Shown here: positions 11,490 to 51,590 of the stretch, piece by piece | Layout of the letters: each line of letters opens with the position of its first letter | Numbering within the stretch: position 1 is the first letter of the stretch | Origin: a phage | Reading direction: 5' to 3' (one strand) | DNA length: 64,000 nt | Assembly: GCA_012441205.1 (NCBI GenBank) | Contig: GCA_012441205.1_4705.1 | Program-made: the position numbers and the translations under genes | The notes under the pieces: generated by a model | The model's input: the letters and a program-made list of their open reading frames with translations, nothing else | What the model was told of the DNA's origin: nothing | Databases searched by the model: none

Positions 11490-11520
11490 GTAATATAAGC
11501 GTGAATAATTTTGGATTCCG
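11490..11520 (-). promoter_or_regulatory. candidate early promoter (minus-strand TATATTACC with A/T-rich upstream)
   Basis: plus-strand ggtaatata at 11489-11497, shared context with three other copies; about 55 nt upstream of the gene start at 11432. Confidence 0.45.
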
Positions 11521-11618
11521 GCTGAGTTATCGCTCAGCATGCAAGGCATCCCGCCGAAGCGAGACACCTTGCACTAACGGAAAATATTCGCGTTACCTTC
11601 TGAATCGAAGACTCAGAA
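11518..11618 (-). terminator. cluster of three stem-loops downstream of the SSB-like gene
   Basis: inverted repeats gctgag/ctcagc, gcaagg/ccttgc, ttctga/tcagaa. Confidence 0.35.
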
Positions 11619-11636
11619 TGCGATGCTAAAGCATGA

Positions 11637-12428
11637 TTAGAACGCTAAGCCATCAAAGGCTACGGACGGATCATCGTCGTCATTTGCGCTTGGCGCATCC
11701 CAACGGGTATCAGGGGCCGCTGAAGCCGAACTTGATGCGTTAGAGTTACCGTTGTACTGGCCGTTACCAGCATTACGGTTACCGCCGCCGTTGTTATTGT
11801 TACGGTTATAGCTATTGTTGCCACCATTACTTACGCTACGGCTTTCACCGTCGAAATTGGTTGCGAGGATGCTCGGCAACACTGCGCGATGAATACGTAC
11901 AAATTCCAACGCACAAAGCGGAGAAACAACCCCGATCTGTAAAGGTTGCCCAGACTCATCAACCAGAGCGTGGAAACGCGGTGGCTTGAATACGAATTGG
12001 ATGTTCGGTTTTTGGTACGCGGTTACAGCGATATATACCGAACCATCATCGTTCTTACCAACCCATGTTGTACTTTCGGTAATCTGTTTCTTCTTACCTG
12101 GATTATTGCGATCGTCGATAACCTTTTCGTTCTTCATCGCAAAACGTTGGCCTGGCTTACCCTTAGCAACCTGCTCGAGGATCGCAAGCAGGTTATAGAA
12201 CGCGTATGAACTCATGCGTGCCCAAATGCTTTCGGCGCGACCCTGCTGGTCTTTACGACCTGTATAAACCGTGATGCGCGGTTGATTCTTAGCAACGCTA
12301 ATTTTCAATGAGGGGATTGAATTACCGCCCTCAACCTTTTCGTCCGCCCACAGTTTCCAGTTGTTGTCGTCATACGCTGTAGGAATAATGTTTCCTTGTG
12401 GTTTACTGCCCGAATTCCAATTGCTCAT
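11637..12428 (-). CDS. hypothetical protein with SSB-like architecture (Gly/Asn-rich linker, acidic C-terminal tip DDDDPSVAFDGLAF)
   Basis: 263-aa ORF; architecture only, no motif proof. Confidence 0.3.
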   Translation of the reverse strand: MSNWNSGSKPQGNIIPTAYDDNNWKLWADEKVEGGNSIPSLKISVAKNQPRITVYTGRKDQQGRAESIWARMSSYAFYNLLAILEQVAKGKPGQRFAMKNEKVIDDRNNPGKKKQITESTTWVGKNDDGSVYIAVTAYQKPNIQFVFKPPRFHALVDESGQPLQIGVVSPLCALEFVRIHRAVLPSILATNFDGESRSVSNGGNNSYNRNNNNGGGNRNAGNGQYNGNSNASSSASAAPDTRWDAPSANDDDDPSVAFDGLAF

Positions 12429-12501
12429 TTTCAGCCTCGTTACGTAGTGTGAATCAATTTCTGGTTCAGATGATAGTCAATATTAGTTAAAAATTACAGC
12501 C

Positions 12502-13299
12502 TCAGCGGAACATGTCCAACAGAAAACGTTTTGCGAAGGGGTCACGTAACTGGTTGACACCAAAGCGTGTACGGTCTTCCGTTGTTAATGGATTCCACTG
12601 ACTCTGTTTCGCAAGATCTAACAGCATCCTTTTTATTTTCACCGGCCCGCTATTGAACTGTACGGCTTGGTCACCGAACGTTCCCAATGTCATCTTTGTA
12701 AATGGAAGGTTCGCAACCTCTGGACGATCCCCACCAGTAAGTTTGGTCGACCACTGATGTTTTCGTTTCAAGGTTCCGGTATGGCTTTCTACCAAAATAA
12801 GTTCACCAAAACCGGTTCTTGCCAACAAGTCAGAAACATAGTGCGTGGTGATATACGATGTCTTGGTTATCGTGGGTAATTTACAATCCATCGATTCGAT
12901 ATTAGGGAGTCGATCTACAGACGCCATCAACCCACGATAAAGTGTAGCGAGTCCTTTTTGTTTTTCGGTGTGTGGCTCCTTATGTATAGCGTGCGGATAA
13001 ACACGCTTTATTGACGCATAGGTTGGCGCATATATCCGCAAACGAATATGGGGAATGAGTTCATTCACCAACTGCCTTAGCTGCAGTAACTCGTTTTGAA
13101 AATCCCCTGTTATCATCGATAACGGTAATTTATGTTGTTCAACGTCTTCAAAGCTTTCAACGAAATTGCGTGCTAAAGTACGCAGGTTGAACAACCAATC
13201 CATCGGTGTTTCTGGCTGTTGCTGTACTGCTGATAGTGTTGCTGACGTCCCTACCGATAAAGGATAATCACCTAACGTGCGGGCGTACATATTGCTCAT
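12502..13299 (-). CDS. hypothetical protein
   Basis: start set at MSNMYA with AAGGAG RBS 9 nt upstream. Confidence 0.45.
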   Translation of the reverse strand: MSNMYARTLGDYPLSVGTSATLSAVQQQPETPMDWLFNLRTLARNFVESFEDVEQHKLPLSMITGDFQNELLQLRQLVNELIPHIRLRIYAPTYASIKRVYPHAIHKEPHTEKQKGLATLYRGLMASVDRLPNIESMDCKLPTITKTSYITTHYVSDLLARTGFGELILVESHTGTLKRKHQWSTKLTGGDRPEVANLPFTKMTLGTFGDQAVQFNSGPVKIKRMLLDLAKQSQWNPLTTEDRTRFGVNQLRDPFAKRFLLDMFR

Positions 13300-13318
13300 A
13301 CCCCACAACTCCTTCTTA

Positions 13319-14461
13319 TCATGGCAACGTATCAAGCCAAGCAGAAACCTTTAAGGCATCAACGTTCGGGTATTTATTACGAATGCGTTCGACCAACAAA
13401 CGCTTAACGTTGTCCTTTGTCAAGTCTCCACCTTTCTCGATAACGTTATTGACAAAACTGTTCTTTAATAGCGACTGGTTGTTCTTGGCGTCCGTTTTAA
13501 TTGACCAAACGAAGCCTGGATACAAAGAAGGGATAGAACGAAACGTTTTCGCCGCATCGTCTTCCTTATCGCAGCGTATTCGGATATGATCACCCTTCTT
13601 CAATGGAGCCAATTCCCGTTCCAACACACGGACAATTTCATCTCCAACAAGACCATGCAGTTTTATCGTCTTGTAGACATCTGCTTTCTTGTTTTCAACA
13701 AATTCCCACTGGTCGTTAAACGTTTCCGTTAACATATAACGGAGATACCCTTTTGGACCTTCTTCACCGTGCGCCAAGCGACCGAACGAACCGCCAACCA
13801 TGATACGTCCTTTCTGGGATTGTAAGTGAATATGTCCGCTCACGATCCATCCCTGGGTCTTCTCCACCATTGCGTTATACGCATCGCTGCTATGAACACA
13901 TGTCGCTTTTAACGCTTCTGGTGGAAGCTGATATTCAAACGCACCGTGCATCAGAATGAAGTCCGGCGATCCCTTCTCATCAATAAGTCGGTTCACGGCT
14001 GACAACGTCACATCCGGGTCGTGGCTGTAGTTATCTGGAAGATAAAGTACTTTTAAACCAAAGTCTTCATCAACCATGCAGAGGTCATCGTAATAACGAA
14101 CTTTCGCTCCTATCTCCATGACCTCGTTCTGTTCAACGAACCACTGACTTTGCTTCTGGTCGTGTAAGTTGGTACCCTCAAGAAAGATCAACGTAATATC
14201 GTGTTTTCTTGCATACCGTAACAACCAGGTACCCCAGGCACGAACAGCAACCACGTCACTCGTCACAAACGTCGTGATACGATCGAAGACATCACCACTG
14301 AACGTAATCACATCAAGCAGCGCAGGATCTTCTTTTGTAATGTAATAACGCAGCTGGCTAATCAGGTTTACTGTCGGTGTTTGACGATGGATAAAGTGAA
14401 TATCCGACAAGTTGATTCCACGTAATACCCCAGGCGTTTTATTTCGACTGAAGTCTCGCAT
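13319..14461 (-). CDS. calcineurin-like metallophosphoesterase, SbcD/Mre11-type nuclease
   Basis: ordered motifs LSDIH, FSGDVFD, GTNLHD, LMHGA, GHIH. Confidence 0.7.
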   Translation of the reverse strand: MRDFSRNKTPGVLRGINLSDIHFIHRQTPTVNLISQLRYYITKEDPALLDVITFSGDVFDRITTFVTSDVVAVRAWGTWLLRYARKHDITLIFLEGTNLHDQKQSQWFVEQNEVMEIGAKVRYYDDLCMVDEDFGLKVLYLPDNYSHDPDVTLSAVNRLIDEKGSPDFILMHGAFEYQLPPEALKATCVHSSDAYNAMVEKTQGWIVSGHIHLQSQKGRIMVGGSFGRLAHGEEGPKGYLRYMLTETFNDQWEFVENKKADVYKTIKLHGLVGDEIVRVLERELAPLKKGDHIRIRCDKEDDAAKTFRSIPSLYPGFVWSIKTDAKNNQSLLKNSFVNNVIEKGGDLTKDNVKRLLVERIRNKYPNVDALKVSAWLDTLP

Positions 14462-15243
14462 CAGAATTCCTCTAAGTTGCTGCTGCTAATAGTCCCCGTC
14501 GTAGACGGCATGTTTCTACTACCCACCGACGCAGTTGTTGAAGAGGTTCTGGCTAGATTCAATCCGTTTAATAACCCACACTCTTTTACCGTACGACGTG
14601 AACCATCACGAACGTCATAAAGAGGTACGTTATAATGGTCAAAAATCCGAAGCCATTGCACGTAATCAGCAACAACATGGTCTTTGCTTTCATTCGGGGC
14701 AAAGCGATCAAGCTGATGGTCGACGTAAGCTTTAGCGCTTTCAGGATTGAAGTTATACTGTCGACGTGCTTTGTCCACCATCGCGAGGAAACATGTATTG
14801 GGGTCACGATTGATGTATGAACGCGTCCGGATAAAGATAGCCGGTACCGTAAACAGAACCTTGTTGTTATTCCCATCAGCAACGATGTTAACCGCACGAT
14901 GCGGTTGGCCTGCTATCTTACACCAATCGTGAACAATGGTGCTATTACTCAGCATCTCCGCGTATTCAGGATCCTGGGAAAACATTCCTGCGAACGGATA
15001 CAAGAAATGTTTAACGAACAGCGATTCAGGCAGGATGTTGGGACGCGTCATCTCCTGTAAACCTTTTCGTAGAAGCTCGCTATTGTCTACCAGCTCCTGC
15101 CACATGTCCGGTCGTGTTTTCGGGATGGACGGATCCTGAGCGCGGCGAATGCGCTCTTCCTCATTTACAACCACTACCCCAGCCGGATACCCCAATAAAT
15201 CCGTTCCTTCGCTAACGTTGCTGTTAGTTTGGCGCGCCTTCAT
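14461..15243 (-). CDS. hypothetical protein
   Basis: 260-aa ORF, stop/start overlap with neighbour. Confidence 0.5.
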   Translation of the reverse strand: MKARQTNSNVSEGTDLLGYPAGVVVVNEEERIRRAQDPSIPKTRPDMWQELVDNSELLRKGLQEMTRPNILPESLFVKHFLYPFAGMFSQDPEYAEMLSNSTIVHDWCKIAGQPHRAVNIVADGNNNKVLFTVPAIFIRTRSYINRDPNTCFLAMVDKARRQYNFNPESAKAYVDHQLDRFAPNESKDHVVADYVQWLRIFDHYNVPLYDVRDGSRRTVKECGLLNGLNLARTSSTTASVGSRNMPSTTGTISSSNLEEF

Positions 15244-15631
15244 TTACTTCCTCCTGCCACTTGATAAAATTACCACGCTCGGATCGCAGAACACCACCCA
15301 GATCGTACGATATACCTTTCTCTGTGACAATCCCCCCAATCTGGAGATCAACACGTTCCGTCGTCGGATCGATATACTTGACACGGACTTTCAATTCCAC
15401 GCGATCGTAATAACGCATTAAATAATCATACAACATCCGGTACGTCGCATCTTCCAATTTGGGTGCGCTATACTGCGACGTTGCAATGAGGTACGGTAGT
15501 GAAACGATGGAACCTTGATAGCAATACGACTGGGAATAATTCGATATTGCGAAATTGGTCATTAACCCATCCAGCTTTTTACCCGACGCGGTTAAAAAGC
15601 TCGACAGTCCCGGTAACGGATTCGATGCCAT
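15224..15631 (-). CDS. hypothetical protein
   Basis: 135-aa ORF. Confidence 0.45.
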   Translation of the reverse strand: MASNPLPGLSSFLTASGKKLDGLMTNFAISNYSQSYCYQGSIVSLPYLIATSQYSAPKLEDATYRMLYDYLMRYYDRVELKVRVKYIDPTTERVDLQIGGIVTEKGISYDLGGVLRSERGNFIKWQEEVNEGAPN

Positions 15632-15644
15632 GAGGAACTCCTCT

Positions 15645-16094
15645 TTAAGCGTAATTCATTCCAACCAATCTATCGTAGTTAGGCATATGCCCTAACTCCA
15701 GTTCGACGGGCATGGATACATTGGTGCGTGGTGCGTAAAATGTTCGCGTATGCATATCGATATACCCACAGTCCAAATAAACAATATCGGACAACTCCGC
15801 TGGATGTTTAGGTGCGGGAATCTTTAAGCGATTGTAACACTCAAGCTGCCACCAGGCATGAAAAAAGTTATTGTAAGCGTACGATTTACTGTTAGCAACT
15901 TTAAGTCCGTAGATCACCCATAACGCCGCCATGAAGTTGGTCGCGTTAATTCGCATCGGTTGTTCATTATTGAGCATGTACGTGTAGGTAAACAACGGTG
16001 TGTTACCATCACCGAAACGTCCGACCAAGGTATTGTTTGTGCGTTCGACCTCAAAGGAAAAATGCTGGCTGCTATTGCCATCAAAATGGATCAT
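15645..16094 (-). CDS. hypothetical protein
   Basis: start moved to MIHFDG preceded by GAGGAG; the longer ORF overlaps a hairpin. Confidence 0.4.
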   Translation of the reverse strand: MIHFDGNSSQHFSFEVERTNNTLVGRFGDGNTPLFTYTYMLNNEQPMRINATNFMAALWVIYGLKVANSKSYAYNNFFHAWWQLECYNRLKIPAPKHPAELSDIVYLDCGYIDMHTRTFYAPRTNVSMPVELELGHMPNYDRLVGMNYA

Positions 16095-16213
16095 TCCGTT
16101 CTCCTCAAGCTTTTTCATTTCATAGAGTGGTGGAAATTCGTAGAAAGTTACAAAAATAAAAAAGAATGGGCAGCCCCTCCCCACCCGAAGGTAGGGAGAG
16201 ACCGCAAATATAC

Positions 16214-16678
16214 TTAAACCAAAGCTGCGATAACGTCGTTAACATTACGGCCTCGCAACTCTGCCGCTAAACGAATAACTTCATCCAGGGAACGGTTTGT
16301 ACGAATCTTGGCCACTTTCCAATTTTCAGGATACTGTTCGAAGTTAAGCAACCAAGTCATTACCTTTGCTTGTTCCATACCGTTGAGTTTGATTGTCGTG
16401 CGCGGATTGGCTTTGAACCACTTCTTGCTCAGCTGCGCCATACGGCGAACAGGGTAAGCGTAAGCGCGAGTCCAGTCTTTGGACAGATTGTCGAGTAATT
16501 CACAGTAGCTGTTGTCGTAGTCTTTGTTGATACGACGTAATAACCAGTTGGCGGTCATCTGATAAAGTTTATCATCTTCACGTAACCGCATACCCGCTAC
16601 TGCTAAATAAATGATAAGACCTGCGCCCAGGATGAGAGACAGGATAAACAGAATTTGGGTTTCTTGTGCTAAAGTCAT
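16214..16678 (-). CDS. hypothetical membrane protein (N-terminal hydrophobic helix)
   Basis: 154 aa, ILFILSLILGAGLIIYLAVAG segment; downstream of a TATATTAC element. Confidence 0.5.
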   Translation of the reverse strand: MTLAQETQILFILSLILGAGLIIYLAVAGMRLREDDKLYQMTANWLLRRINKDYDNSYCELLDNLSKDWTRAYAYPVRRMAQLSKKWFKANPRTTIKLNGMEQAKVMTWLLNFEQYPENWKVAKIRTNRSLDEVIRLAAELRGRNVNDVIAALV

Positions 16679-16771
16679 TTTACTATCCTCGGATTTCGTT
16701 AGGATTTAATTTCCAATATAAGGGCAATGTGATATGCCTTATACAGTCGATTGATGTTGTACATCACTTAA

Positions 16772-16800
16772 GTAATATAGCCGTGAAAAATGTTGGATTA
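16772..16800 (-). promoter_or_regulatory. candidate early promoter (TATATTAC element)
   Basis: plus-strand aagtaatatagccgtgaaaaatgttgg; about 95 nt upstream of the membrane-protein gene. Confidence 0.4.
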
Positions 16801-17595
16801 ACGTGTTCTCCTATCACGATGCGTATACGACTGAAGACCGATGTCCATATGCGGTAACGTCAGCGTCTGCCAGATCTGTCGTGCGTAGCGATCGAGCGTA
16901 TGATCGTCAGTAACACAATCGACGGGTTCGATGAGGTGGGTCGTATACTGGCTTTTCTCAGAGAAAGGTTCGATGTTAGCTGTATCGCCTAATCCGCTTT
17001 TCACGGTGAAGACAAGACGTGTGACGATCATCGCCTTATGCTGCTGTTCATTATAACGAAGGCTGCGGTATACGGCATAGCTTCCTCCTTTTAAGCTTCG
17101 GGTATAACGAAGGTCGGAGGTCGTCTCGGAAATCTGATACAGCATCCAGTCCAACGTATCACGCCAGTACGCATCATCCACATCAGGAACTGTAATACCA
17201 TACCGCGTAGGTAGCAGTTCTAAAAGCAATTTATAAAGTCCGCGACGCAGACCATGCTCTTCTGTTTCCGATAAACCGTTTCCAACGTAACGTGAAATAC
17301 GTGTACGTAAATACGTACGGATGAACATATTCGCCATCAGTGTTTTCACTCTGCTACTGGTATCCTCAAAGCGATCAACGCTGAAACTCGTTTCAATCAG
17401 CCGTCCATTAAAATACAATGCGGCAACATACATCGCGTTATTGCTATCACGTTCAATGTTTAAACGACCGCAGATATTAGCCGCGTCGTTCATGGTAAAT
17501 TCTAATTTATCGTGTTCGATACGATAGATAATATCCTCTTGGGTTGCCAGGCTCGCAATGCGACGGTAGCCCGGAGAAGTACGTTTTACACTCAT
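16798..17595 (-). CDS. hypothetical protein
   Basis: start set at MSVKRT with GAGGA RBS; the first ATG of the longer ORF sits directly after the terminator hairpin. Confidence 0.45.
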   Translation of the reverse strand: MSVKRTSPGYRRIASLATQEDIIYRIEHDKLEFTMNDAANICGRLNIERDSNNAMYVAALYFNGRLIETSFSVDRFEDTSSRVKTLMANMFIRTYLRTRISRYVGNGLSETEEHGLRRGLYKLLLELLPTRYGITVPDVDDAYWRDTLDWMLYQISETTSDLRYTRSLKGGSYAVYRSLRYNEQQHKAMIVTRLVFTVKSGLGDTANIEPFSEKSQYTTHLIEPVDCVTDDHTLDRYARQIWQTLTLPHMDIGLQSYTHRDRRTR

Positions 17596-17634
17596 GATTG
17601 TCCTCGTTTTCAATTTTAAGATTGCATGCGGCAT

Positions 17635-17659
17635 AAACCCTCCCCGCCTTATGCGGGGA
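17635..17659 (-). terminator. hairpin CCCTCCCCG/CGGGGAGGG
   Basis: 9-bp stem followed by UUUAUG. Confidence 0.5.
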
Positions 17660-17677
17660 GGGCAGCCATTAAATGGA

Positions 17678-18316
17678 TTAACCTAATTTACCACCGGCGA
17701 TATTGGTGAAATCTTCGCCATCAGGAACTTGCAGTAGGATACGTGCCATGTCCCAGTTGGTTAATGTAATTGCTTTATCATCGATACTCAGTTCTGGTAG
17801 GTCGAGTTCATGATCATCAAACTCGTAGGAAATACTCCACGTTTCATCTGTTTTAGGATCGGTTATCAACACACCGTCTGTTACACGCATGTAGTCCGGG
17901 TGCAGTTCATTACTGAACGTGCCGAACGGATCGGTGTAACATTCAGCATACCCCTCGATCTGCTGACGCTGTGCCTTCGTACGTAATTCAGGGCACGCCA
18001 TGATCAGTTGTCGAGATATGCCGTTTGCAGCTCGGAAATCCTCCACGGTGTTACATGGCATAACCACATCGTCATGGAAGATGTTCTCCGATTGTCTCAG
18101 CAAAGTCTTACGGAGTTCAGCATAGTTTATCTGATTGAATGCGTCGAACGTTGCTAACGATTCAGCGTAAAAATGCTTTACGTGTTCGCTTGCGCCGCCG
18201 AGGCTATTCATCAGCTTGTGGCCGTACTCCATAAAGCTTTTATCGAGACCGGAGGACATTTCTCCGAACCTCAGTGCACGATAACTGTCTCGTCCACCTG
18301 TAAATATTTGCGCCAT
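17678..18316 (-). CDS. hypothetical protein
   Basis: 212-aa ORF. Confidence 0.5.
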   Translation of the reverse strand: MAQIFTGGRDSYRALRFGEMSSGLDKSFMEYGHKLMNSLGGASEHVKHFYAESLATFDAFNQINYAELRKTLLRQSENIFHDDVVMPCNTVEDFRAANGISRQLIMACPELRTKAQRQQIEGYAECYTDPFGTFSNELHPDYMRVTDGVLITDPKTDETWSISYEFDDHELDLPELSIDDKAITLTNWDMARILLQVPDGEDFTNIAGGKLG

Positions 18317-18331
18317 TACAGGCGTCCTCCT

Positions 18332-18916: not shown

Positions 18917-18931
18917 ATCACCGTCAAAGTC
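18917..18931 (-). CDS. beta-prime N-like subunit, 15-nt micro-exon GACTTTGACGGTGAT (DFDGD)
   Basis: joins in frame to exon 1 to rebuild NADFDGD; the 5' splice site of the following intron is not resolved, so the exon could be a few codons longer. Confidence 0.55.
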
Positions 18932-20532: not shown

Positions 20533-20564
20533 GGGGTATCTCCTACAAATGAAAAAGAACGTTA

Positions 20565-20588
20565 GGACGTATAAGGGAGGGAGGTTGC
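20565..20588 (-). terminator. hairpin GGGAGGGAGG/CCTCCCTCCC after the chimallin-like gene
   Basis: 10-bp stem, 4-nt loop, then T-run in transcript sense. Confidence 0.55.
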
Positions 20589-20624
20589 CCTCCCTCCCGT
20601 CAGATTACATCGAACGTTCTTCCA

Positions 20625-22520: not shown

Positions 22521-22592
22521 TTGGGATTCCTCTTTTCTTAAACTTTATTAAATGACGTCATTGAATCAGCTTCTACTCGCTCATTCACCTAG

Positions 22593-22625
22593 GTAATATA
22601 ACCCTGAAATTTTTTTCAATATTGG
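22593..22625 (-). promoter_or_regulatory. candidate early promoter (TATATTACC element) for the chimallin-like gene
   Basis: plus-strand taggtaatataaccctgaaatttttttcaatatt; about 75 nt upstream of the ATG at 22520. Confidence 0.45.
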
Positions 22626-37222: not shown

Positions 37223-37307
37223 TGCATTGCCTTCCGCGAGTGTAATCAGGAAGGTAATGTAGGTTTATTTTAATCTCCATTTCGCGATGATATGACAGTC
37301 TTTATTA

Positions 37308-41391: not shown

Positions 41392-41399
41392 ATAAACTC

Positions 41400-41426: not shown

Positions 41427-41441
41427 CATCGTTGTATTACC

Positions 41442-43181: not shown

Positions 43182-45772
43182 TCACCTTTGATTGTGTAAA
43201 ACTTCGTGAAGTCCACGCGATCTTTCAAGAACTCACGACTGACGCGTTCTAAGAACCGCAGTTGTTTAACCGTAACTTCAAGCGGCGTCCAACTGTCGTG
43301 TGGATGAATAGAGACCATCCGCCAATCGTAATTACGTAACGCAGGATCGTAGTCATAGAACCATTTATACGGCTCCATGAAATCCATCAGTTTAACGTCC
43401 TGCATATCAGGATCGGGATCGATAACACCATTGATAAGATCGTACGTTACCGCCATCAACGTTGGGCTGATAAGCTGGTATTTGTTTTCAATCGTTACCG
43501 GCGTATCGTACTTCACACGAGGGAAATACAAGGACATATAGTCTTCAACGCGTTTATCGGTTTCAAGACTTTTGTCGCGTAGATAATACGTGTCTGTGTT
43601 CACGAGACCACGGATAGGGGCAATAACATGGTAAATCGCATAAGGCACCCCATCGTTGACTTTGATGTCGGCAGGGTATTGCGTGTCCTCTGCGGTAACC
43701 ACTTCGCTACGATCGTAAATACGTCCACCAACCACAATACGAACAACATGGTCGTCACGAACATTAAACACGTCGTCGTAAGAAAGCTGATTATGCATCG
43801 TCCAACCGGTATCGTAAACGGTTTCACCGGTTAAGTCCGTACGTGGAAAACCAGTACATCTCACGGTAACCGTGTGCGTGTTCCCTTCACTGAAATACCG
43901 TTTCGCGTTGATCATGATCGTTGGCCATTTTACGATATAATCGATATCGCGTACCAAGCTGTAGCTTTTGGTTGCTCGCTCGTCACCTAACCATACTTCG
44001 ATTTGACCAGGTTCGAAAGGCAGCGGATATTCAACATCAATACCCGTCGTAACATCCAACCATACGGTGTGGTTACGATGTTGTATTGTGGTCTTATACG
44101 CTAAGAAGTAGGTGTCGAACAATACTAAACCGGTTTGCTTTCTTCCATCCAACGACCATTTTATTACCCCGTTCTCTTCCGTTACCACAGAAGCATCGTC
44201 GGTAACATCCTTCCATGTGTTCGCGACAGGTTGTCCGTTACGAAGATTTACGCTATAACAGCGGTAACTCGCCCATTCACGGATTGGGACGTCGGCAACA
44301 CCCATCACGTAATCAAGCGTTCTCCCACCAACACCCGATCGACCCTCAACATAGGACGTGGTTTCATATTGCGGATAAAAATGTCGGCCTGCCGGATGTT
44401 GCGTGATACCCAATAATAGACCGTCACTGTCGTACTCAAAGAACGTCGCATTTGCACGTAAACCCCATGGTACTTCAGCGGTAGGGGTACCCATATCGTC
44501 AGTAACGCGTTGTGGACTATCTGCAACCAGTTTTGCCATCGCGTTATACCCGTAAGCGGAGGTCACCATGTCGATCGTGATATTGCTTTCCTTATTACGC
44601 ATGATGCGTGTATAATCACTGGCTTCAAGCGTGCGTGCAAAGAACTCGGGTATATTAGCGTTCTGTTCTAACATCGCACCGACGATGACGTCGTCTGGAA
44701 GTTTATACAGTTCGTGGATGCGGTTATGTTCGAAGGTTAACTGCGTTTTCAAACCGCTATCACGGACAACCACTTCCAGGGTTAAATCACGAAGCGATTC
44801 TGCTCCATCAACCCGTTCAACGAAGTAGCTGACATAATCAACAGGAATCCCGTAATCACGATGCGTGAGCATGCGGATACTATTTTCCTGGTTGGTATGG
44901 TAATAACGTCCTTTTCCGTTAGGCCCTTTCACGTAGATATCAACGTCATCACGATACCGGATTTTAGTATCCGCTTCATCTTTCGGCGGATGAATAAGAT
45001 ACTTCACTTTTTTGTCCAGATCGCCGTTGTACGTTTTAAGATCTTCTACACGGAAGCTGTACCGATGAACAACGGTACCGTCATAGACGACCTGAATGCT
45101 ATCACCGATCTTAAAACTTGTCGGCGGAATGTCTTCAACCGCTTCACCATTGATACTGCAGTGCGTCCAGCCGATACCGGTTTCCTGAATCTTTTTACGC
45201 CAGGCGTATAGCTGACGCTGCCACTGTAGAACCTGTGTCGAGCTGGTTACAATCCCCCCAAGGACATGCACTTCACGCCCCGTCGGTTTCGTGTATGACG
45301 GATAGCCTTCTGCGAAGTCGGCGTTGAGATAGGTGCGCCAGTAATAATCACCAACGCCAAGGTCAGCGATATTCGGTTGGTCGAGCACACAGACCAGCAT
45401 CGTTTCGTTTTCCAGATTACCCGTCCACGTTAATGTCAACGGGAATTCTTTACCGTCCTCGGTATAGATATTGTAATACGATCCCTTCACCTCACAGAAC
45501 TTGCTGAGTTCTCGCCACCACAACCGACCCGCCCCGACATTAAAATCCTCCCCCATATGTCGTCCAATAACAAACACATGGAACGTATTGGTATCATCAG
45601 GAAGATTGAATGTACGATGCCAAGCCGTAAAGTTTTTTACTGCGCCGGTCTTTCCGGTAATACGACGCATCTTGATACGATGCTGGTTGTCCATTAATGG
45701 ACGGCAGTTCACATTCAGCGCAGCATGATTTATCAAGTATTGCGCTGTAGGATTAGAAGCGTTCAACACCAC
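43178..45772 (-). CDS. large hypothetical protein, possibly structural
   Basis: 864-aa ORF, ATGA overlap with downstream gene. Confidence 0.45.
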   Translation of the reverse strand: MVLNASNPTAQYLINHAALNVNCRPLMDNQHRIKMRRITGKTGAVKNFTAWHRTFNLPDDTNTFHVFVIGRHMGEDFNVGAGRLWWRELSKFCEVKGSYYNIYTEDGKEFPLTLTWTGNLENETMLVCVLDQPNIADLGVGDYYWRTYLNADFAEGYPSYTKPTGREVHVLGGIVTSSTQVLQWQRQLYAWRKKIQETGIGWTHCSINGEAVEDIPPTSFKIGDSIQVVYDGTVVHRYSFRVEDLKTYNGDLDKKVKYLIHPPKDEADTKIRYRDDVDIYVKGPNGKGRYYHTNQENSIRMLTHRDYGIPVDYVSYFVERVDGAESLRDLTLEVVVRDSGLKTQLTFEHNRIHELYKLPDDVIVGAMLEQNANIPEFFARTLEASDYTRIMRNKESNITIDMVTSAYGYNAMAKLVADSPQRVTDDMGTPTAEVPWGLRANATFFEYDSDGLLLGITQHPAGRHFYPQYETTSYVEGRSGVGGRTLDYVMGVADVPIREWASYRCYSVNLRNGQPVANTWKDVTDDASVVTEENGVIKWSLDGRKQTGLVLFDTYFLAYKTTIQHRNHTVWLDVTTGIDVEYPLPFEPGQIEVWLGDERATKSYSLVRDIDYIVKWPTIMINAKRYFSEGNTHTVTVRCTGFPRTDLTGETVYDTGWTMHNQLSYDDVFNVRDDHVVRIVVGGRIYDRSEVVTAEDTQYPADIKVNDGVPYAIYHVIAPIRGLVNTDTYYLRDKSLETDKRVEDYMSLYFPRVKYDTPVTIENKYQLISPTLMAVTYDLINGVIDPDPDMQDVKLMDFMEPYKWFYDYDPALRNYDWRMVSIHPHDSWTPLEVTVKQLRFLERVSREFLKDRVDFTKFYTIKGE

Positions 45773-46700
45773 GGCATGCCTCCAGGAGGTATTTCATGTT
45801 GGCTTGGAAATCATTGACGTCACGCGCCATACGACGCTGATCCGCCATGAGACGAGCCAACACGGTATCACGGTAACCACGATCGTGGTCAGCAGCAGAG
45901 CATAAAAGAATAAATGTTGGTGGATGCTCTAAAGCAATCCCAGCAACTTCTTTACTATAACCCCCAACCCAGCTGTAAGCGGTGATTTCAAACAACAACG
46001 CTTGGGTTAACGTGTTCAAACGGGGACTAATATTACTTTCTTTTAATGCTGTTACGAAAGCTGCCATGTTAGGGATATAACCCAGGTTTTCGGTTACGAT
46101 ACCGATGCTCGCAAAATCGTAACGAAGCGTTGTCTGGATGGTGCGCACCATAGTTAGTCTTTCATTATTTGTAAGGCTATCTTTAAACAGGCAAAGATAA
46201 TACCATGCTGTTATGATGGCAACATCACGACGTTGTTGAAGGTCCAGCCCTAAACGTTGTGTGATTTGTCCGCTAATCCAATCACAAAAGACACGCATCG
46301 GGATAGGGCCAAGACGTTCAAAAGGACGTGTGCCCAAGGATTCCCATCCTACCTGAAGATACGCACGTGATTGAAGAAAGTTATATTCACGTTCGTTAAC
46401 AACGGTAGTACGCGATCCTGGGCGTGAAGTATCTGTTGGGGTGCGCGCGTAAGCGCGTTGGTCGATAACAACGCGCTGTCCGTCCATCACTGTTTTAATG
46501 ACCAACGGATGACCAAAAGAAGGGATATCGTCCAACGTATTTTTGTTGCCGATGACTTCGAGAACGGGAGTGTTTACGCCACTTTCTTCACCGGGTGCAC
46601 TTAACAATCCGCCGACGTAAGCAACTTCGATAGCGGTTCGGATACGGTCAATGCCTTTTAGTTTTGTTCCAACAGTTGTGTCGTAAGGAGAGATGAACAT
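45753..46700 (-). CDS. hypothetical protein
   Basis: 315-aa ORF divergent from the sheath gene. Confidence 0.5.
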   Translation of the reverse strand: MFISPYDTTVGTKLKGIDRIRTAIEVAYVGGLLSAPGEESGVNTPVLEVIGNKNTLDDIPSFGHPLVIKTVMDGQRVVIDQRAYARTPTDTSRPGSRTTVVNEREYNFLQSRAYLQVGWESLGTRPFERLGPIPMRVFCDWISGQITQRLGLDLQQRRDVAIITAWYYLCLFKDSLTNNERLTMVRTIQTTLRYDFASIGIVTENLGYIPNMAAFVTALKESNISPRLNTLTQALLFEITAYSWVGGYSKEVAGIALEHPPTFILLCSAADHDRGYRDTVLARLMADQRRMARDVNDFQANMKYLLEACRGVERF

Positions 46701-46843
46701 ATGTAATTCCTTTATTACGGCATATAAGAAAACGGGTTAAGCACACAGATTTACGCATAATTGTAATATTTTACGTTATGCCTATGACATTGTGTCACGT
46801 GTGCAATTATGTCATACAATTTCCTTAAATTAAGGAGAGTTCC

Positions 46844-48916
46844 ATGAGGCTTAAGAATAGCACGCCTCGCGCGATTTTTACGGGCTTTAAAGAGGGTCTT
46901 ACCACGGATCCGGTTACAGCCCCAGAGATCACGCCCATTCACCTCCCGTATGTTTTCATTCAGGGTGGTCGTGGTAAAGAGGACACCTTGCTGTTAACAG
47001 GGGACGCCCTGTCTACAGTCTACGGTGAAGATATGCTGAACTACCGCAGTAAGTACGCTTCTCCAGCAACACTGATTGCTCGCCAGGCGGCTTCTACAGG
47101 TAGCGCGATCTTCACAAAACGTTTGGTTGCGCCGGATGCAACGGCAGCACGCATCCGTATCGGTGTTGAAGTGGTCGCCGATAAACTGGTCGTTTACCAG
47201 CGTAACGCTGACGGGTCCTTTATGAAGGACACCGACGGCAACAAAATCCCTGACGGCGATAAAACCGTTGACGGGGTGAAAATGCGTTGGATTGTTAACC
47301 ACGACAAAGATGCCGTAGCGCCTAACGCCTTCGGTAAAGATGAAGTGGTTATCGGACAAATGACCGCAGCTGATGGTACCCAGAGCAACTACTATCCTAT
47401 TCTGGATGGAATGGTGAGCTGGCGTGGTGCTGAAGGGGACAACATCGGCTTACGTCTGGAAGCACCGACCGCGCTGAGCAGCAACCCTACCCGTACCGAT
47501 ATCATCGAACGTATCGGTGCTTTCCTGTACCGCATTCAGTTCGTGGAACGTAAGTCTTCACGAACTGCGCCGACGGTCATTCGTACGATCAGCGGTATGG
47601 AACAAGAAACCTTCGCGTTGCAGGAAGGTGTTATCCAGCCTGATGACGAAACCGATCTGTCCTTCGGTAAAGTGGTCGTTGATGCCTACGAGTATAATGA
47701 AACGGGTAACACCCCGATCTTTGCTCCGATGGATCAGATGCATCTTTATCAGAAGAACATCGATGAAGTCGTCAAGAAGCTGTACGAATCTGAAAGCAAA
47801 GTTAACAAAGATCTGTTAACCGACGTTGAATTCGTCGAAGGTCAGATGAACATCTTCACCGGTGTCGATTACAACGGCATCCCGTATCAAACCATCGAAG
47901 TTCTCGATGCGGATCAGGGCGGCGTCATCTTTGATGGTACCAGCACCTTCTACGCAATTGATGGTAGCGACGGTGACGTCGACTGGGATACCTTCGACGC
48001 GTTAGCGAAACAGCAGTTCGAATCGTTCGGCAGAATGGGCGAAGATCTGGAAGACATGGCTTTCTATCCGTTCTCCATCGTGTATGATATTGGTTACAAA
48101 GTCGACACGAAGAAAGCGATGGCAAACGTCTTGTCTCTGCGTCCGGATGTCATGATCATTGCGTCAACCCATACCTGGAAGGGTGTGGAACTGAATGTCG
48201 ATGAAGAAAGCTCCATGGGCGCGATGCTGCGTAACTACTATCGTCTGCATCCAGAAAGCGTGCTTTACAATACCCCAGCTTGCCGTGCTGCGGTATTCAT
48301 GCAATACGGTGAAAGCATCGAAGCGCCAAGCCTGGGTAAAGTTCCGTTGACGCTGGAAGTTGCTAATAAACTTGCAACTTACATGGGTGCTTCGGATGGT
48401 GTTATCCGCGGTACCCGCATCGATAACAACCCTGGTAACGTTGTCACAACGATGCGTAAAATCAACAAGACGTATCGTAACGCAACGGTCCGCGATCGTG
48501 ATTGGGAAAACGGCTTGAACTATGTTCAGACCTACAACCGTAATTCCAACTTCTTCCCGGCTTGGGGCACGATCTACAATAACGACCGTTCGGTATGGCG
48601 TTCGTTGATCAACGTGATCATCGGTTGCGATCTGACTCGCGTGTGCTATCGTCTCTGGGCAGAAACCACCGGTACTACAGGAATGGATGAAACCCTGTTC
48701 CTGAAACTGATGGGCGAACGCTTCCTGGAATACACCACGGGCCGTTACAACGACCATGTGACTGTTAAGGGACGTTTCTACCTGGATAAAGAAGACGGTT
48801 ACAACGGCTTCAGCTATCACGGCGATATCAGCCTGATCGGCGATCCAGGCATGACCGTGGGTACGTTTACCATCACCGGGCTGCGTCGTAACACCGAAGC
48901 AGCAGAAGCGGCGTAA
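46844..48916 (+). CDS. tail sheath protein (phiKZ-like, about 690 aa)
   Basis: size, high-expression codon style, strong AAGGAGAG RBS, followed by tube-sized gene; assignment by size and context rather than motif. Confidence 0.55.
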   Translation: MRLKNSTPRAIFTGFKEGLTTDPVTAPEITPIHLPYVFIQGGRGKEDTLLLTGDALSTVYGEDMLNYRSKYASPATLIARQAASTGSAIFTKRLVAPDATAARIRIGVEVVADKLVVYQRNADGSFMKDTDGNKIPDGDKTVDGVKMRWIVNHDKDAVAPNAFGKDEVVIGQMTAADGTQSNYYPILDGMVSWRGAEGDNIGLRLEAPTALSSNPTRTDIIERIGAFLYRIQFVERKSSRTAPTVIRTISGMEQETFALQEGVIQPDDETDLSFGKVVVDAYEYNETGNTPIFAPMDQMHLYQKNIDEVVKKLYESESKVNKDLLTDVEFVEGQMNIFTGVDYNGIPYQTIEVLDADQGGVIFDGTSTFYAIDGSDGDVDWDTFDALAKQQFESFGRMGEDLEDMAFYPFSIVYDIGYKVDTKKAMANVLSLRPDVMIIASTHTWKGVELNVDEESSMGAMLRNYYRLHPESVLYNTPACRAAVFMQYGESIEAPSLGKVPLTLEVANKLATYMGASDGVIRGTRIDNNPGNVVTTMRKINKTYRNATVRDRDWENGLNYVQTYNRNSNFFPAWGTIYNNDRSVWRSLINVIIGCDLTRVCYRLWAETTGTTGMDETLFLKLMGERFLEYTTGRYNDHVTVKGRFYLDKEDGYNGFSYHGDISLIGDPGMTVGTFTITGLRRNTEAAEAA

Positions 48917-48931
48917 TGAGAGGAGTCCATA

Positions 48932-49822
48932 ATGCGTCCTGATAATACCCTACTCGGTGAACAGGGTGTTGGTGCTCTTAGCAACGCGGCTATGGTCGAT
49001 ATTCGTGCAGGTGCCCAAAACGGGTACATCAGCAATATCGGTACGTACGTTGCTAACGCCAACTACATTCCGAACCAAATGTTCTGTCTCCTGCTGGAGG
49101 CACCACGTGGTTTCAACTATCTACCTAACCCGGATGTACAGATTGGTTATCTGAAGGCGTTGGTAGAAGAAGTTGCGCATTCGATTACCGGTCTGCAACG
49201 CGGATTGGAAGTTGAATTCGTTAGCGTCCCGGTTTCTGGTTCCGGTGAAATCCAGGAAGAAGTCTCTGACGTTAAACGTCCTCGCTCTAACCCGACTTTC
49301 GGGATCTATGAGAAAGAAGGTCGTTCCGTTAGTTACTTCCTGGAACAATGGATCACGTATCTGTTGATGGATCCGGATGCCAAATACCCGATGTTGTCGT
49401 CTATCGTATCCACTGGTGGTCCAACCGACCTGCTGGCGGATTATCGTAGCGCAACAATGCTGTTCGTTGAGCCAGACCGCCAACACAAAAAAGTGGTTAA
49501 CGCCTGGCTGTGCACGAACATGATGCCTCACGGTACCGGTGACTGGACATCACGTCGTAACAAGAACGATGCGCCAAACGTGGTAGAATTGAGCATTCAG
49601 TTCACAGCGTTAACACAGACCAACTACGGCGTGCGTGCTTTTGCACAACGTCTGCTGGATAAGATGAACCTGCTCAAAGTGAACCCGGATTTCCGTCCGG
49701 CTTATCTGAGCGACATCGATCCGGCTGTGGCAGCGCAGAAGGTTGGCTACACCTTCGACTTTGATAACAACGATACCTTTGAGGTACCGAATACTTATCA
49801 AAACGTAACACCTCGCGTGTAA
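48932..49822 (+). CDS. tail tube protein
   Basis: 296-aa ORF immediately after the sheath gene, GAGAGGAG RBS, strong terminator after it. Confidence 0.5.
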   Translation: MRPDNTLLGEQGVGALSNAAMVDIRAGAQNGYISNIGTYVANANYIPNQMFCLLLEAPRGFNYLPNPDVQIGYLKALVEEVAHSITGLQRGLEVEFVSVPVSGSGEIQEEVSDVKRPRSNPTFGIYEKEGRSVSYFLEQWITYLLMDPDAKYPMLSSIVSTGGPTDLLADYRSATMLFVEPDRQHKKVVNAWLCTNMMPHGTGDWTSRRNKNDAPNVVELSIQFTALTQTNYGVRAFAQRLLDKMNLLKVNPDFRPAYLSDIDPAVAAQKVGYTFDFDNNDTFEVPNTYQNVTPRV

Positions 49823-49847
49823 CGTAAAAAAAAAGCATATTAACCTC

Positions 49848-49884
49848 CCTTCCTTCCCCGGCCTTGACGGCTAGGGAAGGAAGG
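49848..49884. terminator. bidirectional terminator after the tube gene
   Basis: 11-bp stem ccttccttccc/gggaaggaagg flanked by an A-run on one side and a T-rich tract on the other. Confidence 0.55.
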
Positions 49885-49896
49885 TTTATGGTTTAT

Positions 49897-50436
49897 TTAC
49901 TGTTTGTTCGTGGCTTCACGAATGAAAATGACATCAGGATATTCTTGAGATTCAATGAATTCAGGATTACGATAACGACGAATATGACGCATCGTTGTAC
50001 AAGCAAGTTTGTAAAGATGTTCCTCCTCACGTTGTGTTAATAACATCAGTTGCGCGTCTGGAATCACGAATGGGAGTCTTTCATTCACGTATTCCCGAAG
50101 GTCATCGAGATCATCGTGATGAATGCCCTCTGAGAGCTTATATAACGCTTCCAGCAATTCTAATCCACCGAACTGGTAACTTCCTATTGTCGTCTTAAAC
50201 AATGCGCCAGAACGCGTGGTGGATGCTCTATCGGCGACATCGTATTGTTCTAACATATATCCGTAGACCATGCTACGTCGATCCAGTGTATCCGTAACGA
50301 GATTACGCCACCGTTCCAGTCTTTCGAGCGCTTTGTCGATAGAGTAAACGATCATGCCATGTTCATCCAACTCTTCCGCAATACCCAATAGTTCATTGTT
50401 GTTAGGTTTTGCTGCACCGATAAGAAAAACACTCAT
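49897..50436 (-). CDS. hypothetical protein
   Basis: 179-aa ORF. Confidence 0.5.
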   Translation of the reverse strand: MSVFLIGAAKPNNNELLGIAEELDEHGMIVYSIDKALERLERWRNLVTDTLDRRSMVYGYMLEQYDVADRASTTRSGALFKTTIGSYQFGGLELLEALYKLSEGIHHDDLDDLREYVNERLPFVIPDAQLMLLTQREEEHLYKLACTTMRHIRRYRNPEFIESQEYPDVIFIREATNKQ

Positions 50437-50897
50437 TACTCAAACTCCTTATTCCAAAACTCGATTAATGAATCGAGCTGTTCCTTACTGGTTATCTCAC
50501 CTCCCCTAACAAAATGAAATCGTTCTTGAATGGCGATCTTTTCAAGGATATCGGTAAGCAAATGACGGTGACAGAAATTTCCTGCAGGACAATAACACCC
50601 TAACACCACAACCGGATGGGAGAATAAAGCCAACCATTCCGGTGTATGATCAACAAAGCTTTTGCGCATAAGCGCGTAGTAGCCTATGGTATATTCATCC
50701 TCGGTTAACGTTTTTGATTTGATTCCTGTAACAAGTTCCCATGAAGGTGCGAAGAGTGGGTTACCTGTTTTCACCGTCGTGTCCAGTAGAAACGCTCGTG
50801 TGTCTGAAAGCCAACGATATTTGGCTAATTGAAGGGTGTATAAAAACACAGCGCTAACCCCAAAGGATAAAAAATAAAACCTTGACATAACCACCAC
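50436..50897 (-). CDS. hypothetical protein with CYCPAGNFCHRH motif (DUF488-like)
   Basis: 153-aa ORF; motif resemblance only. Confidence 0.4.
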   Translation of the reverse strand: MVVMSRFYFLSFGVSAVFLYTLQLAKYRWLSDTRAFLLDTTVKTGNPLFAPSWELVTGIKSKTLTEDEYTIGYYALMRKSFVDHTPEWLALFSHPVVVLGCYCPAGNFCHRHLLTDILEKIAIQERFHFVRGGEITSKEQLDSLIEFWNKEFE

Positions 50898-50953
50898 CGC
50901 AACCCCATACAGGGCTACGGTGGGGTCATACAGAGAGACGTGTTAAGTTACAA

Positions 50954-51433
50954 TCAGTCTTTCAGCAGCTCAGCTGCATACGCACTGATGTTGTCGCGAA
51001 TATGCTTAACCTGAGTTGTTGGGAAAGATTTCTTATACGCGGTGGTCAGGCGTCCGTAAACCTGTTTCTTCTCGTTAGAGCCGAAACCAACTTCAGCGCT
51101 ACGTTGAACCGTTGCGGACACAACGTCTTTGCCCAGCGGCAGGGTTACAGAAACAACGTCAACCTGCTTGTTATCCGCCATGAACTGCGCGCCAACGCGA
51201 CCTACCGCCAGACCATGAGCCAGACCGATATCGGTGGTCAGTTTCTGTGCTTTTTCCAGGATTTCTTTTTCTTCCGGCGTTACCAGAGTACCCAGGAAAT
51301 CACTGCCTAACTTCTGGCTACCAGATTCGTCCAGTTTAATACCAGCGGCGATTTTATCAGAAAGAGCCTGAACTTCCGGACGTACGTTAGAAGTGGTTTC
51401 AGTCGCTACGGTGGTTTCTACAGCTTCAGACAT
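50954..51433 (-). CDS. hypothetical protein downstream of a TATATTACC element
   Basis: 159-aa ORF, high-expression codon style. Confidence 0.5.
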   Translation of the reverse strand: MSEAVETTVATETTSNVRPEVQALSDKIAAGIKLDESGSQKLGSDFLGTLVTPEEKEILEKAQKLTTDIGLAHGLAVGRVGAQFMADNKQVDVVSVTLPLGKDVVSATVQRSAEVGFGSNEKKQVYGRLTTAYKKSFPTTQVKHIRDNISAYAAELLKD

Positions 51434-51556
51434 GTTAATACTCCAATTAGTTTTTTCGATCGATCAAAAGGATAAAATCAGAAGATTCTTTCTTCATAGG
51501 GAAAACACAAGTCGGTTAAGGTTTACTTCTTAAACTCCTTGCGTTCTATCAGTTAG

Positions 51557-51590
51557 GTAATATAGACCTCAACTTTTTTCCAATAATGCT
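51557..51590 (-). promoter_or_regulatory. candidate early promoter (TATATTACC element)
   Basis: plus-strand ttaggtaatatagacctcaacttttttccaataat; about 125 nt upstream of the start at 51433. Confidence 0.45.

Follow-up and report, generated by a model that had tools for sequence, protein, structure and literature searches.

Repeated TATATTACC elements as probable phiKZ-type early promoters in a Goslar-type chimallivirus

The window and its repeated upstream element

The window, which denotes the entire 64,000-nucleotide stretch of phage DNA analysed here, is 97% identical to Escherichia phage Goslar (Chimalliviridae) and represents a Goslar-type chimallivirus; the genome has a G+C content of 46.5%. 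The genes in the window include chimallin and four RNA polymerase beta/beta'-like proteins. PHROGs were used in place of Pfam for the polymerase-like proteins; Pfam returned essentially nothing for these and for the promoter-proximal proteins, with one sub-threshold Rpb2 match.

The sequence TATATTAC occurs in four exact copies in the window, all on the minus strand and all in gaps upstream of minus-strand genes. Read on the plus strand, GGTAATATA is found at 11489-11497, 22592-22600 and 51556-51564, and GTAATATA is also present at 16772-16779, where the preceding base gives AGTAATATA at 16771. The preliminary description of this DNA had placed copies at 11489, 16771, 22592 and 51556, some 55-125 nt upstream of minus-strand genes; all four were recovered as minus-strand cores, and between the 3' end of the core and the ATG that follows, the measured distances are 58 nt (ATG at 11432), 94 nt (16678), 73 nt (22520) and 124 nt (51433). 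Its count of four holds for the exact copies but overlooked a fifth site, with a TACATTAC core, at 37261-37247. The shared flanking context that it had noted is visible as a common upstream context in the alignment, and the four exact copies have in common an element of ~35 bp, TAAT-N2-AAAA-N-ATTTCACG-N-C-TATATTAC-CTA-N-GTGA. The sites are listed here; nvRNAP stands for the non-virion RNA polymerase.

11483..11517, minus strand: probable early promoter of the gp175 homologue, with the core TATATTAC (11497-11490), a G at 11483 as predicted start and a leader of 51 nt before the ATG at 11432
16765..16799, minus strand: probable early promoter of the gp182 homologue, with the core at 16779-16772, a start predicted for 16765 and a leader of 87 nt before the ATG at 16678
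22586..22620, minus strand: probable early promoter of the nuclear shell gene chmA, with the core at 22600-22593, a start predicted for 22586 and a leader of 66 nt before the ATG at 22520
37247..37281, minus strand: fifth probable early promoter, upstream of the gp225 homologue, with the core TACATTAC (37261-37254), a start predicted for 37247 and a score of 29.7 bits (18.7 at most in shuffles)
51550..51584, minus strand: probable early promoter of the gp214 homologue, with the core at 51564-51557, a start predicted for 51550 and a leader of 117 nt before the ATG at 51433
2327..2361, minus strand: weak, degenerate candidate upstream of the gp165 homologue (nvRNAP beta-like subunit); core TACATAAC at 2341-2334, followed by N5-GG, not N5-TG

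In Goslar, the predicted starts at 11483, 16765, 22586, 37247 and 51550 correspond to positions 160777, 166055, 172964, 187625 and 201930. Two of the elements reach into the preceding gene: the gene before the 16765..16799 site ends within the TAAT box of that site (stop codon 16800-16798), and the upstream half of the 51550..51584 site overlaps the last codons of the late gp213 homologue, the stop TGA of which lies at 51571-51569. The site at 37247..37281 is without the TTTCACG box. The promoter at 11483..11517 drives an operon that includes the homologues of the nvRNAP subunits gp171 and gp165, and the next gene after chmA encodes the nvRNAP beta' subunit. Stable hairpins lie near several of these sites:

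16170..16205, minus strand: intrinsic terminator, a 16-pair stem followed by a T run; -31.3 kcal/mol, z = -5.1
20574..20598, minus strand: strong hairpin GGGAGGGAGGG-caac-CCTCCCTCCC in the gap between chmA and the nvRNAP beta' gene; -28.6 kcal/mol, z = -5.3
11540..11575 (approximate), minus strand: strong UUCG-loop hairpin after the gp176 homologue and just upstream of the first promoter; -29.4 kcal/mol, z = -5.0

The terminator at 16170..16205 closes a single-gene early unit that consists of the promoter at 16779, the gp182 homologue and the terminator itself.

Conserved positions and motif statistics

In an alignment of 17 sequences, T, A, A, T, A and C of the core (six of its eight positions) never vary, nor do a TG 6-7 nt downstream and two upstream A's; the upstream tract TAAT-N2-AAAA-N-ATTT can be seen as well. 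The 16 nt upstream of the core have an A+T fraction of 0.75-0.94 at the four exact sites, compared with 0.25-0.81 at one-mismatch matches. In 17 of 17 aligned sequences the TG stands at the distance expected from the AR9/phiKZ start rule; we infer from this rule ("6N then G+1" in AR9) that +1 would be the G of the downstream TG, seven nt past the core, the RNA-seq data being resolved per gene.

Taken by itself the bare 8-mer is not significant (four in the window against 2.23 expected, with at least four in 18 of 100 shuffles), and the 9-mer is borderline (three against 0.41 expected, a number reached in 1 of 100 shuffles). The extended pattern TAYATTAC-N5-TG has five matches in the window, each on the minus strand, where 0.40 would be expected; none of 100 shuffles reaches five. 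Weight-matrix scans place the four exact sites at 50-61 bits versus 6.5 bits for the best match in shuffled genomes; the highest score in these scans (52-61 bits) belongs to the gp182 site. Across the Goslar genome, a pattern search yielded 13 sites that match the slightly looser TAYATTAY-N5-TG, all on the minus strand (shuffles: mean 2.6, maximum 8), five of them with the TACATTAC core variant. The weight matrix sets these 13 sites apart, with 29.7-52 bits, from the next match at 22.3 bits, from all others at 17.3 bits or less, and from a shuffle maximum of 18.7 bits. No credible plus-strand site came out of the weight-matrix scan: the best match on that strand scores 17.3 bits, below the shuffle maximum, and is located in a late gene. 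Two exact TATATTAC matches in Goslar coding regions (225862 and 1608) were not counted as members, as they have neither the flanking context nor the N5-TG.

Among close relatives, IMG/VR contained only three Goslar-like contigs, and the 205-nt region upstream of chmA is 100% identical among them; in the phage collection, no chimallin identities fell between 96-99% and ~30%.

Expression of the downstream genes in Goslar

In published Goslar RNA-seq under chimallin (ChmA) knockdown, only the early programme of the virion RNA polymerase (vRNAP) is kept. The expression values are per-gene densities from Goslar and not from the window phage; the sites are conserved between the two. The library kit was NEB E7770, which we take to be non-directional, and the strand of the RNA-seq signal was for this reason assigned from gene orientation. 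The knockdown data resolve into nine early gene blocks, each of which (9/9) has a motif site at its upstream end; with 13 sites distributed at random among ~250 upstream slots, the probability of such a match is ~8e-14. Read density rises 24-383-fold at the nine block starts, and 1.4-6.8-fold at the four sites within blocks.

Among the window sites, the one at gp225 heads an early block of ~41 kb from gp225 to gp162; here knockdown density increases 132-fold, from 0.006 in gp224 to 0.82 in gp225. The increase is 39-fold at the gp214 site, 6.8-fold at chmA, 2.1-fold at the gp175 site (from 0.49 in gp176 to 1.03 in gp175) and 1.4-fold at the gp182 site, where density past the terminator drops to 0.18 of that level. 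Across the hairpin between chmA and beta', gp247 retains 0.48 of the chmA density, and this hairpin is probably a partial terminator or attenuator. At the degenerate candidate 2327..2361 (22.3 bits, slightly above the shuffle maximum of 18.7), density rises only 1.6-fold, and its standing as a promoter is uncertain. A 5-minute Goslar RNA-seq panel marks a chmA start, without a coordinate, and the sequence displayed opens 91 nt upstream of the ATG.

The agreement between sites and block boundaries bears on the possibility that the elements match by chance or are relics, without function, of intergenic cassettes that were duplicated. The count of the 8-mer would permit the former, and the near-identity over ~38 nt of the sites upstream of gp004 and gp182 suggests duplication; the probability of this explanation is nevertheless negligible, as chance is contradicted by the statistics of the extended pattern, the single-strand bias, the 9/9 block boundaries and the conservation across genera. 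Alternatively, the motif could act in RNA and not as a DNA promoter, with transcripts initiated at a more distant upstream point and the motif serving as their leader, processing or stability element. Per-gene RNA-seq does not place the 5' end relative to the motif, and would accommodate this reading; it is exceedingly improbable given that the upstream neighbours at nine sites are near-silent in the knockdown (densities of 0.003-0.04), that the silent gene upstream of the site at 51564 ends 5 nt ahead of the core, and that mapped starts in phiKZ, AR9 and 201phi2-1 lie downstream of the same element (PMC8244752, PMC5312081, PMC11512511).

A further alternative concerns the enzyme: nvRNAP might read these sites as middle promoters, instead of or alongside vRNAP. 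Phage phiKZ gp054 has both an early and a middle promoter (PMC8244752), and genes downstream of the Goslar sites are still expressed at 30 minutes in control cells. Under ChmA knockdown, however, the second transcription programme is off, yet transcription from the sites proceeds at full level; moreover, neither the phiKZ late motif (TATG, with G at +1) nor the middle motif (an A run and then TACT near -22), as described in PMC8244752 and PMC7598289, appears in the alignment. This makes a role of nvRNAP at the sites very unlikely.

The knockdown data contain two density rises without a motif, from gp185 to gp184 (window positions ~18316-18332) and from gp177 to gp176 (~12428-12502), and the motif may therefore not be the sole early signal; these rises may instead mark a second, undescribed class of early promoters. 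Likewise, with 13 promoters for ~175 early genes, either very long transcripts or unrecognised promoters are implied.

Known early promoters, the virion polymerase and implications

The core had been named in the preliminary description as that of the phiKZ early promoters, and Table 2 of PMC7058600 indeed gives "phiKZ TATATTAC". Early (vRNAP) promoters of phiKZ number 28-32 sites with the core TATATTAC (Ceyssens 2014, as cited in PMC8244752, PMC10914365 and PMC7058600), and vRNAP promoters are described as AT-rich and extended, with their centre near -10 and transcription beginning 6 nt downstream (PMC5312081, PMC7598289). The phiKZ promoters and the elements in the window share the 8-nt core, the upstream A/T tract, the position at early operons and, probably, a virion-packaged multisubunit polymerase as the reading enzyme; in contrast to phiKZ, the Goslar type has fewer sites (13-14 per 237 kb, all on one strand), a distinct TTTCACG box, the TACATTAC variant core and a genome of 46.5% G+C. 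The chmA site resembles the upstream region of phiKZ gp054 (GAAAAAAATTTGAGATTTATATTAC) almost base for base, with 73 nt between core and ATG in both; PHIKZ054 carries the early motif and a primary start site (PMC8244752). The motif is also recognisable upstream of chmA in RAY, PhiPA3 and Eowyn.

The published consensus sequences of 201phi2-1, OBP, N1M2, phiKZ and AR9 fit the element, the "6N then G+1" rule included. The closest extended match is the 201phi2-1 consensus, TTAWTAVAA_HYWTTTRARR_BTATATTACDWHDGTG (PMC7058600, Table 2; PMC11512511), which combines a TTAAT/A-rich tract, a TTTRARR box, the TATATTAC core and a GTG equally far downstream; its TTTRARR_BTATATTACDWHDGTG part fits the window sites, whereas its host is Pseudomonas and its box differs in detail (CACGGC here). 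Predicted early promoters of OBP and N1M2 (ATATTAT...AAGTG) have a like architecture, with AWWWWWTTTCARR upstream and GTG downstream, but their core ends in T where the core in the window ends in C. The AR9 early promoter, AAATATATATTAT-(6N)-G+1, which the virion polymerase reads without new protein synthesis (PMC5312081), has the core TATATTAT and a start G after six variable bases; unlike the Goslar type, AR9 has a uracil-containing genome, no nucleus, a Bacillus host and no upstream box.

One gene in the window is a candidate for a subunit of the enzyme involved:

56842..61188, minus strand: homologue of Goslar gp207, annotated as a 1448-aa RNA polymerase beta-like protein; phrog_3148, 1390 bits

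In the Goslar knockdown, gp207 shows a log2 fold change of -3.8 to -4.1, and is on this account regarded as expressed late. Its homologue in the window is presumed to be a subunit of the virion RNA polymerase, and thus of the enzyme that would read these promoters. Goslar virions carry the vRNAP subunit gp196, as seen with the tagged protein, which after injection colocalises with the phage DNA; this DNA resides in a vesicle together with vRNAP.

Such a compartment is also relevant to the proposal that the sites are host sigma-70 promoters, with TATATT as the -10 box, used by E. coli RNA polymerase right after injection. Like the bacterial -10 element, the core is an AT-rich sequence with its hexamer near -10; TATATT agrees with TATAAT at 5/6 positions, and the predicted start lies at a compatible distance. 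The sites differ from sigma-70 promoters in their conserved flanks and in the missing -35 partner: a sigma-70 consensus scan called none of the five sites, with no -35 box at a spacing of 16-18 nt and no TG extension, and sigma-70-like sites are rarer across these regions than in shuffles (11 versus 19.0 and 14 versus 25.1). Features foreign to sigma-70 promoters (AC after TATATT, the TTTCACG box and N5-TG) are common to phages of Pseudomonas, Erwinia and Klebsiella, and phiKZ-type phages carry out early transcription with their own injected polymerase (review, PMC13282480). Together with the enclosure of the injected Goslar DNA with vRNAP, these observations render the host polymerase a most improbable reader.

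The preferred interpretation is that in this Goslar-type chimallivirus the TATATTACC elements serve the injected vRNAP as early promoters of the phiKZ type; to this interpretation we assign a probability of roughly 0.9. The virion polymerase had already been proposed in the preliminary description; the RNA-seq blocks, the match between the chmA site and phiKZ gp054 and the encoded subunits of a multisubunit polymerase now lend support to this proposal. The vRNAP, a multisubunit polymerase that would travel in the virion and enter the cell along with the DNA, would recognise an element of ~35 bp on its own. Numbered on the coding strand from the putative start, the G of the invariant TG, this element has its TAAT/A-rich tract at about -34 to -25; next comes a box resembling TTTCACG (about -24 to -18), then TA(T/C)ATTAC as the near-invariant core (-14 to -7), which five variable bases separate from the TG. 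The required melting of the DNA would take place where the AT-rich core sits. We know of no sigma-like specificity factor for vRNAP. From these sites the enzyme would transcribe leftward into chmA, the nvRNAP genes and many small early genes, and the transcripts would range from one terminator-closed gene to tens of kilobases.

This type of signal is well known in phiKZ-type phages, and no new mechanism is revealed; here the signal is written out for the Goslar lineage and checked against published expression data. No description of a Goslar early-promoter consensus was found in literature searches. A broader proposition, which we advance tentatively and with more doubt than confidence, is that 13-14 promoters on one strand launch the entire early programme (~175 of 249 genes), with an element nearly unchanged between chimalliviruses of E. 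coli and Pseudomonas, the shell proteins of which are only ~25% identical. If this is true, early transcripts of up to ~29 kb would be made within the injection vesicle, promoter recognition by vRNAP would be one of the best-conserved traits of these phages as a family, and its target element could find use as a portable early-expression signal in phage engineering.

For the Goslar lineage, the E. coli model of nucleus-forming jumbo phages, the analysis provides a concrete promoter map in which a start nucleotide is predicted for all five sites of the window and all 13 of Goslar. Its sequences can also be used in vitro to study promoter recognition by a multisubunit polymerase that works without a sigma factor, which the field treats as an open question (PMC13282480). 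The map accounts for the early and late block structure of the published RNA-seq, and it puts chmA and the nvRNAP genes directly under the control of the virion polymerase.

Copies of the element in the window

A megablast search with positions 10000-24000 of the window returned Escherichia phage Goslar as its sole match (97% identity, 98% of the query covered), a nucleus-forming jumbo phage of the Chimalliviridae; by the Goslar annotation, window position 1 corresponds to approximately Goslar 149,294. Four RNA polymerase beta/beta'-like proteins are encoded in the window, together with the nuclear shell protein chimallin. The four copies listed in the preliminary description, GGTAATATA at 11489, 22592 and 51556 and AGTAATATA at 16771, all read TATATTAC on the minus strand, and they are placed upstream of genes as described, the copies in ascending order lying 58, 94, 73 and 124 nt 5' of the ATG in the homologues of the Goslar genes gp175, gp182, chmA (gp246) and gp214. 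The count of four was incomplete; a fifth site with the variant core TACATTAC had been overlooked and was found with the extended pattern TAYATTAC-N5-TG. The bare 8-mer is not significantly enriched in the window (4 vs. 2.23 expected; at least four in 18 of 100 shuffles); significance comes from the context common to the copies, since the extended pattern has five matches, on the minus strand only, vs. 0.40 expected, and five was attained in no shuffle.

Features of the window (gp numbers denote homologues of Goslar genes; rises and drops are in Goslar knockdown read density)
11497, minus strand: site upstream of gp175; predicted +1 at 11483; 2.1-fold rise
16779, minus strand: site upstream of gp182; predicted +1 at 16765; 1.4-fold rise
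22600, minus strand: site upstream of chmA; predicted +1 at 22586; 6.8-fold rise
37261-37247, minus strand: fifth site, TACATTAC core, upstream of gp225; predicted +1 at 37247; 132-fold rise
51564, minus strand: site upstream of gp214; predicted +1 at 51550; 39-fold rise
2341-2334 (Goslar 151634), minus strand: degenerate weak candidate upstream of the gp165 polymerase subunit; 22.3 bits
16205-16170, minus strand: terminator-like 16-pair hairpin and T run after gp182; density drops to 0.18
~20598-20574, minus strand: strong hairpin between chmA and the non-virion RNA polymerase (nvRNAP) beta' gene; density drops to 0.48
20625-22520, minus strand: chimallin gene

Promoters at 51564 and 16779 extend into the 3' end of the gene upstream. 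The first shares 51569-51584 with the late gp213 homologue, whose stop codon stands 5 nt before the core; in the second, the TAA of the gp183 homologue (16798-16800) lies inside the TAAT box. Window positions 18877-19282 are apparently an intron-less allele of the Goslar nvRNAP beta' region (Goslar 168165-169660); the group I intron gs001 and the HNH endonuclease gene gp186 are missing, and the region measures 406 nt vs. ~1.5 kb in Goslar. The group I intron at 61435-61821 (minus strand; Rfam RF00028, 57.8 bits) is the counterpart of Goslar gs002 and separates the homologues of gp207 and gp206. Positions 61473-64000, which take in this intron, the HNH-like homologue of gp206 and the beginning of the gp205 polymerase subunit, are only 86% identical to Goslar, vs. 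~97% for the remainder of the window.

The element in Goslar and related phages

For pattern and weight-matrix scans, the whole Goslar genome was assembled from five pieces. All ten exact copies of TATATTAC are on the minus strand; the extended context surrounds eight of them, and the two without it lie inside coding regions. The slightly looser TAYATTAY-N5-TG had 13 matches, again confined to the minus strand (mean 2.6 and maximum 8 in shuffled genomes). In a weight matrix derived from these 13 sites, they scored 29.7-52 bits, one candidate reached 22.3 bits, and all others scored at most 17.3 bits (shuffle maximum 18.7). One Goslar site, 49732-49725 (L002), falls within the annotated 62-aa ORF gp047, with its predicted start downstream of the ORF start codon; this ORF may be mis-annotated, or its true start may lie further downstream.

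Alignment of the 13 Goslar sites and the sequences upstream of chmA in four other phages gave the consensus TAAT-N2-AAAA-N-ATTTCACG-N-C-TATATTAC-CTA-N-GTGA, in which T, A, A, T, A and C of the core, a TG six to seven nt past the core, and two upstream A's are invariant. The preliminary identification of the core as that of phiKZ early promoters agrees with the published phiKZ form, TATATTAC (PMC7058600, Table 2). The same table gives predicted early promoters for 201phi2-1 (TTAWTAVAA_HYWTTTRARR_BTATATTACDWHDGTG), which fits the window consensus best, and for OBP and N1M2 (...TTTCARRYAKATATTATYWAAGTG), and a related, shorter predicted consensus for EL. The early consensus of AR9 is AAATATATATTAT-(6N)-G+1, and transcription in phiKZ and phiR1-37 starts 6 nt past the consensus (PMC5312081); such a motif, centred near -10, is stated to be present in all jumbo phages that have polymerases of their own and to have been confirmed by transcript profiling wherever tested (PMC7598289). 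The +1 positions were predicted from the invariant TG by the 6N-then-G rule; relative to them, the core would span -14 to -7, and the TTTCACG box would span about -24 to -18. Host sigma-70 promoters would be an alternative identity, yet a sigma-70 consensus scan called none of the five window sites, and sigma-70-like matches were rarer than in shuffles (11 vs. 19.0 +/- 4.3 in 11000-23000; 14 vs. 25.1 +/- 4.6 in 36500-52500), a shortfall that may reflect avoidance of host-polymerase promoters.

Upstream of chmA, the window reads GAAAAAAATTTCAGGGTTATATTAC-ctaggt-G, and phiKZ gp054 is preceded by GAAAAAAATTTGAGATTTATATTAC-taaatt-G; the core-to-ATG distance is 73 nt in both. Recognisable versions occur in RAY (AAAAAAATTACAAGTCTATATTAC), PhiPA3 (GAAAAAAATCTCACATCTATATCAC) and Eowyn (TATATTAC-ttaggt-G), phages whose chimallins are only ~22-25% identical to that of the window. 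Since an early motif and a primary start site were reported at PHIKZ054 (Wicke et al.) and the position matches, the window chmA site corresponds in position to a phiKZ early promoter that has experimental support. The ~200 nt 5' of the chmA ATG (22521-22720), in the spacer that separates chmA from the divergent gp245 homologue, show 100% identity among the window, Goslar and two IMG/VR contigs; these genomes differ by ~3% overall, and chimallin is 96% identical in one of the contigs.

Transcription under ChmA knockdown

ChmA knockdown halts Goslar at the injection-vesicle stage, in which the vesicle holds the virion polymerase and the early programme alone is transcribed (Armbruster et al., bioRxiv 10.1101/2023.09.20.558163; read counts from Supplementary Table 2). 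These counts have per-gene resolution and describe Goslar, not the window phage; they separate genes kept in the knockdown (log2 fold change ~ -1.3 to +1.4) from genes lost (~ -3 to -8). The kept genes are grouped in nine blocks (gp001-004, gp014-021, gp037-040, gp044-047, gp070-075, gp094-159, gp162-225, gp214-216 and gp200-201), and one of the 13 sites stands at the upstream end of every block, a match with a chance probability of ~8e-14 for 13 sites placed randomly in ~250 upstream slots. Chance matches are thus excluded by the pattern, weight-matrix and block-boundary statistics. Knockdown read density rises 24-383-fold across the nine block-start sites, and 2.0-fold (gp105), 2.1-fold (gp175), 1.4-fold (gp182) and 6.8-fold (chmA) across the four within-block sites. 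The hairpin and density drop after the gp182 homologue therefore delimit a self-contained promoter-gene-terminator unit.

Reading of the sites by the non-virion polymerase is unlikely; their activity is undiminished in the knockdown, and they have neither the middle nor the late motif that has been published. Action of the motif at the RNA level is likewise unlikely, given silent upstream neighbours at nine sites in the knockdown, including the gene that stops just before the core at 51564.

Density also rises from ~0.29 to 0.65 reads per nt from gp185 to gp184 and from ~0.22 to 0.49 from gp177 to gp176 (hand calculation, replicate A knockdown counts); the corresponding window junctions, ~18316-18332 and 12428-12502, have no TAYATTAC site. 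Another early promoter class, unequal mRNA stability or an effect of introns could be the cause. The knockdown library (kit NEB E7770) was, we presume, non-directional; early-like reads on the plus-strand gp172, gp245 and gp233 homologues (window 6491-6856, 22775-23869 and 31523-32365), within minus-strand early blocks, are probably antisense read-through counted by such a library.

Thirteen promoters for ~175 early genes imply very long transcripts or further promoters. No description of the Goslar early-promoter consensus was found in the searchable literature; the kind of element is already well established, and the Goslar-lineage sites are an addition to it, with practical value as a map of promoters and transcription units in the chimallivirus that serves as the E. 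coli model.
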